Origin: Candidatus Omnitrophota bacterium
Lineage (GTDB): Bacteria; Omnitrophota; Gorgyraeia; Pluralincolimonadales; Pluralincolimonadaceae
Reading direction: 5' to 3'
Assembly (NCBI GenBank): GCA_028716565.1
Contig: JAQUPL010000009.1
Span: 1-51,225, forward strand
Length of the DNA: 51,225 bases
In this document: positions 5,720 through 40,322 of the stretch, piece after piece
How positions within the stretch are numbered: the first letter of the stretch is position 1
Layout: each line of letters opens with the position of its first letter
Position numbers and translations under genes: made by a program
Notes under the pieces: generated by a model
What the model saw: the letters and a program-made list of their open reading frames with translations, nothing else
The model's database searches: none
What the model was told of the DNA's origin: nothing

Positions 5720-5746
5720 ACGGAATGCTAGGAGCCGTGAGCCCCT

Positions 5747-6406
5747 ATGAAAATAACAGATCTCAAAAGCCAGGTGTGGACACAATACACCACCAAGATC
5801 CGCCCCGGTGATATAGGAGCCGTGGTCGATACCGGCATCGTCGCGCGCCTTTCCTCGAGGATGATACTGCCGTCGACCGACTTCCTCCACTTCTTCCTTT
5901 TCGCCGAATACGTCCCCGGAGAGAACGACTTCGTTATACTCGAGAGCATCCCGAGCCATGGTGTGGCCGTTGCCCGGGCGTCATGGTACCTGGATAAGAC
6001 GGTCGCTGTCTTCCGCCCAAGCCGCGAGCACGTACTGCTGGCCGGCGTCTTACCGAACAAGGCGACCGGTACGCACCTTTCCCCGGAGCAGCTCGGCCGG
6101 GAGGCGGTATGGCAGGCGACGAAGTGGGGGCGGTCGCGATATGATTATCGGATCTGCGTGGAGATCGGCTACCGGGCAATAACCGGATGCTTGCGTAATT
6201 GGATACAGGGAAAGGGCTTCACCGTGCACTTCACCGAGTTCCCCCTCTCGAGGGACAAAAGCCTGCTTTGCACGCAGCTCGTCGACGAGGCTTACTACGA
6301 GCTTTACCCGGTCTTCGACCGCTGTTATGAGGTGCTGCCGGCCAACTTCATGAGCCAGTACGCCGACGGCTACCTGGACTACATATGCGGATGGCCGGAG
6401 AAATGA
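5747..6406 (+). CDS. permuted papain-like amidase (NlpC/P60, YiiX/YaeF-like)
   Basis: IRPGDI start, N-terminal His (FLHFFLF), ESIPSHGV, C-terminal LLCTQLVDEAY (CSELV..AY-type). Confidence 0.7.
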   Translation: MKITDLKSQVWTQYTTKIRPGDIGAVVDTGIVARLSSRMILPSTDFLHFFLFAEYVPGENDFVILESIPSHGVAVARASWYLDKTVAVFRPSREHVLLAGVLPNKATGTHLSPEQLGREAVWQATKWGRSRYDYRICVEIGYRAITGCLRNWIQGKGFTVHFTEFPLSRDKSLLCTQLVDEAYYELYPVFDRCYEVLPANFMSQYADGYLDYICGWPEK

Positions 6407-6909
6407 ACACCGGACAAAAAACCGTCAGGATCCTGGGCGCTGCAGCCCTCGGCTATACCGCGTGGGCCATAGGTAATTTCTTCGCCACGCGCAGCCAGGC
6501 GCTTGCTACTGCCCGATCGCTGGCCATCGATAAAGGGATGATAAACCTCGGCGCCGGCTGCATGCGAGATCAGCTGACCATGGGGATCTGCGGCTTACCC
6601 GAGGTAGTAGTCAACGCCGATATCAACAGCGGCGGACCCAACAGCGTCGTCACCGACTTCGAGTCCGGGAGCCTGCCCTTCACCGACGGCGAGTTCGATG
6701 TAGCCTTCGCCAGCCACGTCCTGGAGCACATAGTGAACTGGGAACAGGCGCTGGATGAGTGGAACAGAATTGCGGACCGTGTTATAGTAGTGCTGCCCCA
6801 CCCGCTGAGCATAGCAGGCCGCCTGGCCCGGGAGCACGTTCAGCACTTCTCTCAGGCAGATGCCGCGGCGATCGAGGCCGCCTGGCCTAAAACCAAAGTG
6901 TTTATGTAG
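6403..6909 (+). CDS. class I SAM-dependent methyltransferase with N-terminal TM helix
   Basis: INLGAG motif I; SLPFTDGEFDVAFASHVLEH. Confidence 0.8.
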   Translation: MNTGQKTVRILGAAALGYTAWAIGNFFATRSQALATARSLAIDKGMINLGAGCMRDQLTMGICGLPEVVVNADINSGGPNSVVTDFESGSLPFTDGEFDVAFASHVLEHIVNWEQALDEWNRIADRVIVVLPHPLSIAGRLAREHVQHFSQADAAAIEAAWPKTKVFM

Positions 6910-6921
6910 TGCATAACCCCC

Positions 6922-6949
6922 TTGACAAACCTAAATAACCGTGTATAAT
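6922..6949 (+). promoter_or_regulatory. sigma70-type promoter flanked by two TTATGCAC boxes (6909-6916, 6952-6959, minus strand)
   Basis: TTGACA-N16-TATAAT upstream of the ParB-like gene. Confidence 0.8.
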
Positions 6950-7044
6950 GAGTGCATAACTGGTTTGGGTAGGTAATGAGAGACGAGAGACGTATTTAGG
7001 CATACACCACAGTGTGGGGTATGCCTATTTTTGTGGGAGGCTAC

Positions 7045-7695
7045 ATGGAAATCGTACACATGGCGATCCACCGGATCCAGGAGGAGCCGTGCTCCGCGCC
7101 CCGGGCGCTGGACGAAAGCATAAAGAAGTATGGCATACTTCACCCCATACTGCTTTACCAGGATGACGATGGTATATATATCCTGGTCGACGGACGCCGG
7201 CGGTTCTCGTGCGCCGTCAGGCAGGGGCTAAAGACCGTCCCCGCGATAATTCTCCCGGGCGACGTGTGCAAGGAGCTCGTCGGACTATCGGAGCACTACA
7301 GCCGGTCGCCATCACCGGCGATCGAGGCCGAATATTTTGCCGCCCTCATATCCGGAGGCATGACGCAGACGGAGCTGGCCGGCGCCCTGGGTATCAGCCA
7401 GGCCAAGATCAGCCAGCGCCTGGCGCTGCGCGAGAAACTTATCCCCGAGTTCTTCGAGATGCTGCGCGCCGGCACGCTCATAGCAACAGTGGCCAGAGAA
7501 ATCACTTCCCTCGATAGCCAGGCGCAGCGCACGTTGTTGAAACAGGCTGCGAAAGGCCAGAGGCTGACCATTAAGTATCTGAACGGCCTCAAGCGCGAGA
7601 AAATGATGGCGACGCTGGACCTGGTACCGGTCCCCGAGATCCCCACCAACAAAGGATCCTTAAAATCATGCCCGCACTGCGGGAAGGAGTTATAG
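7045..7695 (+). CDS. ParB/Spo0J-like protein (ParBc domain + HTH)
   Basis: SIKKYGILHPILL, ILVDGRRRFSCA, HTH MTQTELAGALGISQAKISQRL; SD GGAGG. Confidence 0.85.
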   Translation: MEIVHMAIHRIQEEPCSAPRALDESIKKYGILHPILLYQDDDGIYILVDGRRRFSCAVRQGLKTVPAIILPGDVCKELVGLSEHYSRSPSPAIEAEYFAALISGGMTQTELAGALGISQAKISQRLALREKLIPEFFEMLRAGTLIATVAREITSLDSQAQRTLLKQAAKGQRLTIKYLNGLKREKMMATLDLVPVPEIPTNKGSLKSCPHCGKEL

Positions 7696-12031: not shown

Positions 12032-12117
12032 TTATGCACACCCCCTGAACGTGACAGTGGTGAGTTATGCACACTTTAGGCCGAGTTATGCACATATCAC
12101 AAGGGGAGTTATGCACA
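12032..12117 (+). repeat. four TTATGCACA boxes (12032, 12065, 12086, 12109)
   Basis: Exact 9-mers, each preceded by AG; match the DnaA-box consensus TTATNCACA. Confidence 0.9.
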
Positions 12118-12129
12118 TGGTAGGTGACT

Positions 12130-12507
12130 ATGTTTAAAAAAGCCCGGGATATCATCAGCGAGCAGTGTGCCCTGGGAGCCCGCCCGGCGGAGATCCGGAA
12201 GAAGCTCATATCTGAAACTACTCTCTCGGTGGACGAGGTAAAGATGATAATGAAGGAGCTGCTGCCGGCAGAGGAAATGAAGCGGGCCCAGGCCATCTTC
12301 GATCAGATGATAAAGGAGAGCGGTCTCCCCGATATCATGGTCAAAGAGATCCTTTTGAAAGGCGGGCGCACAAAGACGATCGCGGCTCTGAGGACGGCGA
12401 TCCGCCGCCGGCTGAAGGCCGAGACCGGGCTGACGTTCGCTCAGATCAATAAGATGGTCGGCCTGGAGGAGGGCTCTCATCATCTTTCCGAGGACGTGAT
12501 GGGTTGA
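12130..12507 (+). CDS. DnaA domain IV (Bac_DnaA_C/TrpR-like HTH)-like protein
   Basis: EILLKGGRTKTIAALRTAIRRRLKAETGLTFAQINKMVG aligns by eye with DnaA [38 protein letters not shown]; no AAA+ domain. Confidence 0.6.
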   Translation: MFKKARDIISEQCALGARPAEIRKKLISETTLSVDEVKMIMKELLPAEEMKRAQAIFDQMIKESGLPDIMVKEILLKGGRTKTIAALRTAIRRRLKAETGLTFAQINKMVGLEEGSHHLSEDVMG

Positions 12508-12508
12508 G

Positions 12509-12525
12509 TTATGCACTTATGCACA
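12509..12525 (+). repeat. two overlapping TTATGCAC boxes just after the stop codon
   Basis: TTATGCACTTATGCACA. Confidence 0.85.
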
Positions 12526-12557
12526 GGCTTATTATTATTAGATAGAGGGAGGCTTTT

Positions 12558-12695
12558 ATGACAGAGATACTGGTTATAACGGTAATAGGCGTGGGTTTTA
12601 CCGCGGTGAACCTAATTATCCTGGGGCTGTGTCTTAAGCTTTATACGGAATACTTCAAAGACATGTCCCGGAGCAACAGGAAGGTAGTAAAATGA
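12558..12695 (+). CDS. 45-aa TM protein (not in ORF track)
   Basis: SD GGGAGG; hydrophobic ILVITVIGVGFTAVNLIILGLCL; ATGA overlap with the next gene. Confidence 0.55.
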   Translation: MTEILVITVIGVGFTAVNLIILGLCLKLYTEYFKDMSRSNRKVVK

Positions 12696-22769: not shown

Positions 22770-23867
22770 CTAGACCACGTACATCGGCATCAGCAGGTGC
22801 ACATCGTGTCCGTATTTCACCATCGCGGGTCCTTTGTCAGATGTTGTCATCATCTTGATACTTGGTGCTGGAGAAAGCGACACGGTATCCCGCAGCAGTG
22901 AAGCGTTGAATGCTATCTTTCCGGATCCTTTACCCTGCACCATGAATTCCAATTTATGGCCATCCCCATCCTGTGACCATACCTTCACCCCGCCGCCGCG
23001 CTTGGTCTCTAAACGTAGAGGATGCAGCTTGAATTCCTTCTGCTTAATGACCGCCTTCAAGGCGTCCAGCATCTCGCCCCGGTCGAAGGTCATCGGCTTC
23101 AGGTTCTTGGGATCCGGATATATCTGCTTGTAGTCGGGGTAAGTGCCTTGTATCGGCCCTGTGCCTATAACGATATCCGGCGTGGAGAACGTCAGGTAAT
23201 TATCGCCGATGCACATAACTATCTTGTCCCGCTCGAAGGCCTTGAACAGCCGGATGGCTTCACCAGGGATTATGTACTGCCGGGGATCTCCCTTCTTGAA
23301 TTTATGGGCGGTGGTATACTTGACCCTCGTCGTCGCCATACGGAAACCGTCCGCGGCGCAGAGCTCTATCTCGCCGTCGAGGAACTTCAGACTCATGCCT
23401 GAGAGCACGGGTCGCGTGTCTTCAGTCGCCATCGCATAGGCCACCTTATTCACTGCCGGCACCAGCGCCGATATGATGATGGGCTTGGCCTTTTTCATGA
23501 TGAGCTTGTCCTTGAAATCAGGGAATTCTTTACCCGGCATGATATCGGTGATACACAGCGCCGTGCCCGAAGATATCTCCATCATCTTATCTTTCGAGAG
23601 GAGCGTCACGCTGGGCGTTTTCAGCGTATCCAGGAGGAGGAGCACCTTATCCGGGGAAACGCAGCAGCTGTCTCCTTTGGCCACGATCTTGGCCTTGACT
23701 TTGGTGGTTATCACCGCCGTCAGATCTGTGCAGGTTAGCTGCAGGCAGCCGTCAGCTGCCGCCAGCAGCACCATTTGCAGGATCGGCAGCGCCGAACGCT
23801 TAAACCGCGCCGCCCTCACCGTCTTGAGCGCCGATATGAGCGCTATTCTATTTACTGCTACTTTCAA
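22770..23867 (-). CDS. dnaN: DNA polymerase III beta sliding clamp
   Basis: 365 aa; LPILQMVLL, EDTRPVLSG, AADGFRM, GTYPDYKQI, IAFNASLL, LLMPM C-terminus. Confidence 0.92.
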   Translation of the reverse strand: MKVAVNRIALISALKTVRAARFKRSALPILQMVLLAAADGCLQLTCTDLTAVITTKVKAKIVAKGDSCCVSPDKVLLLLDTLKTPSVTLLSKDKMMEISSGTALCITDIMPGKEFPDFKDKLIMKKAKPIIISALVPAVNKVAYAMATEDTRPVLSGMSLKFLDGEIELCAADGFRMATTRVKYTTAHKFKKGDPRQYIIPGEAIRLFKAFERDKIVMCIGDNYLTFSTPDIVIGTGPIQGTYPDYKQIYPDPKNLKPMTFDRGEMLDALKAVIKQKEFKLHPLRLETKRGGGVKVWSQDGDGHKLEFMVQGKGSGKIAFNASLLRDTVSLSPAPSIKMMTTSDKGPAMVKYGHDVHLLMPMYVV

Positions 23868-39769: not shown

Positions 39770-39834
39770 TTTATACCTCCCGAAGCCTCTTTGAACATAG
39801 CATAAAACCACAGCCTGGTCAAGGCCGCAGGGGG

Positions 39835-40300
39835 TGTGCATAATATGTGCATAACTCTGTGCAAAACTCCCGGAAGGCTTTTCACCCAAAAACTTTTACA
39901 CAGTCCACCCGGGCCCCTGAGTTATATTTCTGCACAAACTCTGCACAAACTCTGCACATTTTTAAGTAACTTATGCACATATTATGCACTTCGTGTGGTT
40001 CGCACTATGTTGTTTTTTTTCTAAACTACGATTGTGGTTCGCACTATGTTGTTTTGCTATATCTTCGTAAAATGGCTATTTTTGTTACCAAAAATCTTAT
40101 AGACATAAAGTAGTATAATATGTAAAGTTATAATCGTGAGAACTCCATTACATAATATTTTCCACCAACCACAACACCAAACCCCTTATTATTATGACTT
40201 ACATTTCATGTTATATATCGCTATCTGATACTTCGTAATTGTAATGTAGTGCTAATAACAGGGGGTGTGCATAACTTAAAAAACTGGTAAAACTTGACAA
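39835..40300. other. putative replication origin (box cluster + AT-rich region)
   Basis: Five exact TTATGCAC plus four TGCACA variants, mostly at 11-bp pitch; 23-nt direct repeat (39994, 40033); AT-rich; point of gene divergence. Confidence 0.7.
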
Positions 40301-40322
40301 ATTTAATCTAACTGTTTATTCT
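40294..40322 (+). promoter_or_regulatory. sigma70-type promoter, box at 40266-40274 just upstream
   Basis: TTGACA-N17-TATTCT, then SD AAAGGAGG. Confidence 0.75.

Follow-up and report, generated by a model that had tools for sequence, protein, structure and literature searches.

What would a virus-like element gain from a gene that resembles a fragment of the bacterial initiator DnaA, and which protein reads the DnaA-box-like repeats that enclose it? The gene in question, called mini-DnaA here, encodes 125 amino acids behind an AGGTGA Shine–Dalgarno sequence (12130..12507, plus strand) and lies in a window, i.e., the whole analysed stretch of DNA, of 51,225 nucleotides. The sequence-only reading of this window had proposed a viral initiator fragment with its own, shifted box specificity. 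In the following, the homology of the protein, the identity of the boxes, and the layout of the loci are examined before the possible roles of the gene are weighed.

The Mini-DnaA Family and Its Relation to DnaA

Among relatives, the pN/pS ratio of the mini-DnaA gene lies between 0.12 and 0.41 at a pS of about 0.5, and the open reading frame (ORF) is judged to be a real gene under purifying selection. Homologues of about 70% identity occur on contigs of about 52 kb. An exhaustive HMMER search together with a second, word-index search gave a family of 27 proteins of 67–145 amino acids. No relatives were returned by a scan of IMG/VR with the family alignment or by a scan of GTDB genomes with query A1, megablast of 15 kb against a phage collection gave no match, and in PHROGs the family appears under no functional name. 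Upstream of the window gene, no sigma70-like promoter was found, and a search for RNA evidence turned up landfill metagenome DNA runs only.

Pfam and PHROGs searches with the window protein gave no DnaA match, nor did sequence-profile searches of the PDB with the queries A1, A2, and P0009. The gathering score of the Pfam family of DnaA domain IV (PF08299, Bac_DnaA_C) is 31.5 bits; the window protein has no match, and the best family members reach 18.5–25.2 bits. Three remote members match PF08299 below threshold (E=1.7e-5 to 2e-3, model positions 3–57 of 69), and for member P0028 a precomputed PF08299 match exists. While these databases are blind to the window protein itself, the relationship emerges at the family level. 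Comparison of the 27-member family by hhalign with genuine DnaA domain IV, taken from full-length, Pfam-verified DnaA proteins recovered in the same analysis, gave a probability of 96% over 59 columns (P=3.9e-9); with DnaA domains I–III as the control, P was 0.94. Furthermore, the family HMM retrieves real DnaA proteins.

The predicted fold may point in the same direction. With the full-length AlphaFold model, Foldseek found nothing significant. The C-terminal module (pLDDT 71) placed the DnaA domain IV–DNA complexes of E. coli (1J1V) and M. tuberculosis (3PVP) at ranks 1 and 2, with TM scores of 0.66 and 0.64, respectively, and E-values of 3–9, which are not significant; such weak E-values are expected for about 70 helical residues. 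Aquifex DnaA (1l8q) reaches a TM score of 0.69, likewise at a nonsignificant E-value, and superposition of the module on DnaA domain IV structures gives 2.0 Å over 59 columns. On the family-level profile comparison, and with DnaA domain IV complexes ranking first among the fold matches, mini-DnaA is best described as homologous to DnaA domain IV, standing alone and lacking an AAA+ domain. Both the alignment with domain IV and the missing AAA+ domain, as put forward in the sequence-only reading, are thus borne out.

Architecture of the Protein

Within the family, conservation peaks in the motif GGRTKTIAxLR, which aligns with the basic loop of DnaA. R80 of its RTKT stretch corresponds to R399, the minor-groove arginine, and R88 to R407; both are invariant or nearly so in the family. 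The module homologous to domain IV comprises residues ~53–125 and spans helices 1–4 and the basic loop, so that mini-DnaA retains the minor-groove loop (R80-T-K-T) and the first helix of the helix-turn-helix (HTH). In contrast to DnaA, it has neither domains I–III nor the last helix of domain IV, and it ends inside the recognition helix. All family members terminate soon past the turn of the HTH: the window protein keeps about 11 recognition-helix residues, ending 11 residues past the position of D433, and P0020 and some other members keep only about three. As had been claimed, the recognition signature is replaced, with hhalign setting LEEGSHH against G-RD(H/Y)(T/S)T. The D-H-T-T signature reads E-G-S-H, and the positions of the base-contacting residues D433, H434, T435, and H439 are occupied by E, G, S, and S. 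In the AlphaFold model, residues 110–125 are disordered. Given the short recognition helix, the replaced contact residues, and this modelled disorder, sequence-specific box binding by mini-DnaA is uncertain.

A further peculiarity is found at the N-terminus. The forms of 120–125 amino acids are internal duplications, in which residues 1–50 represent a degenerate second copy of the module that has lost helix 2 and the basic loop by a clean deletion. This segment matches the short forms of 67–87 amino acids with P=3.9e-10 and its own C-terminal half with P=2.4e-7.

DnaA Boxes in the Window and at Chromosomal Origins

The octamer TTATGCAC occurs in 13 exact copies in the 51-kb window, compared with 1.75 expected, and none of 100 shuffles attained this number. 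At least 13 copies in three clusters had been claimed, and all 13 are indeed grouped: at the parB promoter (6909 and 6952, minus strand), on both flanks of the mini-DnaA gene (12032, 12065, 12086, 12109, 12509, and 12517, plus strand), and in the region around 40 kb (39836, 39847, and 40267, minus strand; 39971 and 39982, plus strand). Upstream of the gene, four direct boxes AGTTATGCACA (12032..12117, plus strand) follow each other at pitches of 33, 21, and 23 bp, the spacings given earlier. The conserved unit exceeds the octamer and reads (A/G)AGTTATGCACA. Position 5 was described as constantly G, which applies to 13 of 13 window boxes; sorted by N, the TTATNCACA words of the window count nine with G, one with T, and none with A or C. 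In relatives with a pS of about 0.5, the flanking boxes are exact and the spacers between them diverge. The preservation of the boxes against diverging spacers and synonymous sites argues that the boxes are under selection.

The question of whether G at position 5 is a viral trait was addressed by a scan of prokaryotic genomes, one for each species, in which three TTATGCAC copies were sought at the pitch seen in the window. More than 120 loci were obtained, most of which were set aside as unrelated tandem or coding repeats. Fourteen arrays have a full-length dnaA in the fetched locus (five of them Pfam-checked), and 12 of these 14 lie within about 180 bp downstream of the dnaA stop codon. They belong to Methylococcales and other proteobacteria, Bdellovibrionota, Treponema and other Spirochaetes, Dehalococcoidia, and Bradymonadales. 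In this set, which was selected for the TTATGCAC octamer, 72 of 85 boxes carry G at position 5, and the origins are made almost wholly of TTATGCACA. Chromosomal arrays and window share an AG 5′ flank and an AGG(C) 3′ flank, and pitches of 12, 21, and 33 bp are found at chromosomal oriCs beside dnaA. In the TTWTNCACA consensus, position 5 is the degenerate N (PMC7561715). Since G-type boxes build chromosomal origins beside dnaA, the G is not a viral peculiarity; the window boxes are ordinary DnaA boxes of a common chromosomal subtype, and the proposed shift in specificity loses its ground. As TTATGCACA boxes form chromosomal oriCs in several groups, it is plausible that the boxes of the host are of the same type, and host DnaA would then be able to explain those of the window.

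Further arrays were noticed. In a Candidatus Omnitrophica MAG (L130), three exact TTATGCACA boxes lie at a 22-bp pitch in intergenic DNA (5737–5789). No DnaA-like ORF was detected in this 8-kb locus, so that the array is possibly a cluster of DnaA boxes separate from oriC. A recurring array that contains the octamer is found in Microcoleus, Lyngbya, and other filamentous cyanobacteria (L036, L039, L053, L061, L103, L105, L113, and L120), where a conserved leader ending in agtaaaaataaattttcatca is followed by three to six tandem 21-bp units TTATGCACGGAGCTAGACTGA.

The Element Behind the Stop Codon

Directly past the stop codon of the mini-DnaA gene, two tandem boxes, TTATGCACT and TTATGCACA, stand at an 8-bp pitch (12509..12525, plus strand). 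They are followed by a GC cluster, GGC, and four DnaA-trio-like triplets, TTA x4 (12526..12540, plus strand), which read 3′-AAT-5′ on the opposite strand. The published rule for a basal unwinding system (BUS) calls for a DnaA box and, after no more than 16 bp of spacer, three or more triplets whose central A lies on the 5′-tail strand (PMC8287927). A scan for BUS-type sites found the post-stop site as the sole match in the window (0.15 expected per 51 kb). Its boxes TTATGCACT and TTATGCACA at 12509 and 12517 form the preferred tandem pair and stay within the two mismatches allowed for a box, and GGC and TTA x4 follow in the correct polarity. The polarity is that of the C. difficile trios, 5′-CAC CTA CTA CTA TTA... 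(PMC7561715), and of the chromosomal origins L072 and L104. The latter, a Spirochaetaceae oriC, also shares the 8-bp double box: its sequence TTATGCAC-ATATGCACA-GCCC-CTA x5 has its counterpart in TTATGCAC-TTATGCACA-GGC-TTA x4 of the window.

In the window and in the distant members L014 and L015, a box, a 3-nt GC cluster, and TTA TTA YTR TTA come after the gene, and the element is kept in these two members despite their differing boxes. The weight of the BUS evidence lies in this fixed position behind the gene in independent lineages; L007, from the same virus group as the window, lacks the element. Read-through of the stop codon into boxes and trios was considered and rejected: the frame in L015 differs from that in the window and L014, which argues for a noncoding element. 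A long AT-rich unwinding element was found nowhere next to the trios in the window clade, where about 17 AT-rich bases precede the ribosome-binding site (RBS) of the next gene; in L013 and L014, AT-rich DNA is present past the gene. The next gene, directly past the trio element (12558–12695), encodes a predicted membrane peptide of 45 amino acids and is syntenic in the window clade (44–45 amino acids in L001, L004, and L006).

By its sequence, the post-stop element matches the chromosomal unwinding module of DnaA boxes and DnaA-trios. The whole locus looks like a bipartite origin in miniature, with an initiator gene of which a part of domain IV is left.

The parB Promoter and the 40-kb Region

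The promoter of the ParB-like gene (7036..7695, plus strand; ParB_N and HTH_ParB domains) corresponds to the sigma70 consensus at 12 of 12 positions, TTGACA(6922)-16-TATAAT(6949). Two minus-strand boxes, 6909–6916 and 6952–6959, bracket it (6909..6959, plus strand), one ending 5 nt upstream of the −35 hexamer and the other beginning 2 nt downstream of the −10 hexamer, a placement that suggests the geometry of a repressor site. In relatives, two to four boxes at a 21–22-bp pitch occupy the same position. At the parB promoter of the window, a run of five C is found on the other side of the box (GTGCATAACCCCC-TTGACA) than in the 16-nt motif TTATGCACACCCCCTG described below. No canonical parS was found in the window. 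In a phylogenetic profile of ParB, all close relatives have both gene and boxes, and the lone distant relative is cut off, which makes the comparison uninformative.

The third cluster lies in an oriC-like region (39794..40322) with box arrays, repeats, and AT-rich DNA between two divergent promoters, TTGACC-17-TATGTT leftward (39822–39794, minus strand) and TTGACA-17-TATTCT rightward (40294–40322, plus strand). The minus-strand boxes at 39836 and 39847 are accompanied by a degenerate one at 39858. Opposed to them, a plus-strand array (39926–39989) begins with three degenerate CTCTGCACA copies at an 11-bp pitch and grades into the exact boxes at 39971 and 39982. The region is completed by AT-rich DNA over about 200 bp and by the minus-strand box at 40267. 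Two direct repeats of 23 nt, TGTGGTTCGCACTATGTTGTTTT (about 39994–40016 and 40033–40055), separate the box array from the AT-rich stretch and could be sites for a second origin-binding factor; the first of them holds a small GC hairpin that was flagged as terminator-like. The first box of the array upstream of the mini-DnaA gene is extended to a 16-nt motif, TTATGCACACCCCCTG, which occurs three times in the window: 12032–12047 (plus strand), 39843–39828 (minus strand), and 40274–40259 (minus strand). Of these copies, only the one at 40274 precedes TTA TTA gca CTA and then an AT-rich region, a weaker BUS-like arrangement oriented into AT-rich DNA.

The cumulative GC skew, which is confounded with gene orientation, has its minimum in the 40-kb region and its maximum near 16 kb, and the gene strand switches at 40 kb. 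Besides ParB, the 30 ORFs scanned include a homologue of the DNA polymerase III beta-clamp (22770..23867, minus strand), the only recognizable replisome gene found, a DUF5131 protein, and a tyrosine recombinase. An initiator, a helicase, or a primase was not recognized among them.

Linkage of Gene and Boxes Across the Family

Box-like 9-mers accompany the gene in every mini-DnaA locus examined. In the window, L001–L007, L013–L015, and L136–L140, three or four direct boxes precede the gene at a pitch of 20–33 bp, and in L008–L012 the boxes lie within the gene's own TTGACA promoter. Close relatives keep the four upstream and the two post-stop boxes, and a relative of 50% identity has three boxes at a 33-bp pitch. 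Members of 29–34% identity, in phage backgrounds that encode DnaB, carry exact or degenerate boxes in the TTGACA promoter. Even the minimal members of 67–87 amino acids, on unrelated contigs, have three direct upstream boxes at a 20–21-bp pitch. On the 5–6-kb contigs L013–L015, near-consensus boxes are concentrated around the gene.

The box itself varies by lineage: it is TTATGCAC in L013, TTGTGCACA in L014, and TTATCAAC or TTATCCAC in L015. The sequence-only reading had suggested looking for co-variation of box and recognition helix; this line of evidence was given up, since L013 has the window's box and another protein tail, and differences between hosts explain the variants equally well. 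The variants (TTATGCACA, TTGTGCACA, and TTATCAAC) could therefore be due to different hosts rather than to different mini-proteins.

The genomic surroundings offer some further observations. In three phages of the subfamily with 122 amino acids (L009, L011, and L012), genes for dockerin and PKD-domain proteins adjoin the mini-gene on its upstream side, which hints at cellulosome-producing Clostridia as possible hosts. The 52.6-kb relatives L001 and L002 carry an RVT_1 reverse transcriptase gene (L001/L002:1118-2125) upstream of spike-like genes, possibly part of a diversity-generating retroelement.

Comparison With Known Systems

DnaA-related proteins reduced to one part are known. Hda has the AAA+ domain only and is the mirror image of mini-DnaA, which has domain IV only. 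A precedent for a domain IV homologue on its own is GafY (=HdaB, CCNA_01111) of Caulobacter, which binds numerous promoters of a gene transfer agent derived from a phage (PMC9632790). The sequence-only reading had missed that such proteins exist. Like mini-DnaA, GafY and the N-terminal part of Rhodobacter GafA combine a stand-alone domain IV homologue with a phage-like element. However, GafY acts jointly with GafZ in activation and anti-termination, and no report places it within DnaA-box arrays; next to the window mini-gene, where the 45-residue membrane peptide is encoded, no GafZ-like partner was seen. The likeness of GafY and mini-DnaA is one of domain type rather than of direct sequence comparison.

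P1 oriR, pSC101, F, and RK2 have DnaA-dependent origins with host-type DnaA boxes, and these replicons encode their own Rep initiator with iterons. The window element is likewise a mobile replicon with host-type boxes at its origin, but it has no recognizable Rep, and mini-DnaA is its only initiator-related gene. An iteron–Rep replicon would combine direct repeats at a pitch of about 21 bp with a neighboring gene for a winged-helix Rep initiator; repeats at a 20–33-bp pitch are indeed there, but the protein is DnaA-IV-like and not Rep-like. In E. coli, datA and the DARS loci (for DARS, PMC6868365) are DnaA-box clusters outside oriC that modulate DnaA. The comparison of the window boxes with these loci covers their clustering.

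For the layout of the mini-gene locus, the bipartite oriC of B. subtilis offers a parallel, in which incAB-dnaA-incC carries DnaA boxes and DnaA-trios (PMC6669920, PMC8287927). The window shows the same succession of a box cluster, an initiator-type gene, and a second box cluster with a 3-nt GC cluster and four triplets. It differs in that its "dnaA" is part of domain IV, a long AT-rich DNA unwinding element (DUE) is missing in the window clade, and the locus, carried by a virus-like element of 51 kb, is remote from the origin indicated by GC skew.

Against this background, stand-alone domain IV homologues as such are already known (GafY/HdaB). What is new is the truncated and duplicated protein architecture, the close enclosure of the gene by DnaA boxes throughout the family, the oriC/BUS-like layout of the cassette, and its presence on an element without a recognizable initiator.

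Possible Roles of Mini-DnaA

We favor, tentatively and with a probability of roughly 0.45, a replicon that depends on host DnaA and on which mini-DnaA competes for, or represses at, the same boxes. Full-length DnaA of the host would recognize the TTATGCACA boxes and open an origin of the element, which would most likely be that at 40 kb. Mini-DnaA, devoid of the AAA+ domain, would be unable to oligomerize or to unwind DNA and would compete or repress by sitting on the same boxes. It might autoregulate through the boxes flanking its own gene, shut the strong parB promoter and the two promoters flanking the origin, and thereby set the amount of host DnaA able to load. We infer the DNA binding that this requires, and competition with host DnaA is the leading model. 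Several findings speak against it: the recognition helix is truncated and its contact residues D433/H434/T435/H439 are replaced, host DnaA alone could account for every box, the window mini-gene has no promoter that was found, and no long AT-rich DUE follows the trios in the window clade.

The main alternative, possible if on balance unlikely, is that host DnaA alone binds all boxes. The gene would then be regulated by DnaA, as dnaA itself is, and its product would be a GafY-like transcription factor acting elsewhere or a modulator working by protein–protein contacts. The boxes are indeed indistinguishable from chromosomal DnaA boxes, the graded 11-bp arrays at 39926–39989 resemble sites for a cooperative oligomer of full-length DnaA, and the trio-like triplets require the AAA+ domain that the mini-protein is missing; doubt that the mini-protein binds at all stems chiefly from its truncated recognition helix. 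Yet the most conserved motif of the family is precisely the DNA-contacting basic loop of DnaA, and HTH proteins with their own sites on either side are usually autoregulatory. Moreover, the link between gene and boxes persists in L008, L010, and L011, phages with their own DnaB-type module that need no DnaA origin. A private system in which a mini-DnaA of shifted specificity serves viral boxes not preferred by host DnaA is very unlikely. It would account for the G in place of C at position 5 in 13 of 13 window boxes and for the replaced RDHTTV signature, but 72 of 85 boxes at 14 chromosomal origins are of the same type, with the same flanks and beside dnaA, at a position that is the degenerate N of TTWTNCACA (PMC7561715), and the mini-protein has no DNA-opening domain of any kind. 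Least probable of all is that the boxes are centromere or operator sites of a ParB-like protein rather than DnaA sites: they bracket the parB promoter, and no canonical parS presents itself as ParB's own site, but the same boxes are found at chromosomal dnaA loci, flank the mini-gene on contigs without a called ParB gene (L008–L015), and fit the DnaA consensus exactly.

A different question is where the element would be opened. That the mini-gene locus (12.0–12.55 kb) is the functional unwinding site, and the 40-kb region mainly a pair of divergent promoters controlled by DnaA, is rather improbable, even though the former holds the sole BUS-type site of the window and its order of boxes, gene, boxes, and trios mirrors incAB-dnaA-incC. 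The AT-rich DNA past the gene in L013 and L014 and the chromosomal arrays directly past the dnaA stop codon favor this assignment as well. It conflicts with the GC-skew minimum and the gene-strand switch, which are at 40 kb and not at 12.5 kb, with the mere ~17 AT-rich bases between the trios and the next RBS, and with the absence of the post-stop element from L007 of the same virus group. An equally doubtful but more far-reaching proposal sees in the cassette a portable, miniaturized chromosomal origin on uncultured viruses, whose "dnaA" would be a 60-residue half-domain that, in place of a full recognition helix, uses its basic loop and helix cap to bind boxes and gates the loading of host DnaA and unwinding. 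If true, the DnaA fold would have a new mode of DNA recognition, and viruses a new way of taking over the initiator of their host.

Significance

The boxes carry a message for chromosomes as well as for viruses. Whole chromosomal origins in several phyla work with TTATGCACA as their DnaA box instead of the textbook TTATCCACA, a point of relevance for tools that predict origins. Should mini-DnaA bind DnaA boxes, as the competition model supposes, nature would have provided a minimal competitor of the initiator that bacteria universally share. The protein would then show how little of domain IV suffices for box recognition and could serve as a tool to probe or to block initiation. The cassette further suggests that some viruses without an initiator of their own replicate from captured oriC-like modules by means of host DnaA. 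Such modules would bear on the prediction of hosts and on the movement of origins between chromosomes and mobile elements.
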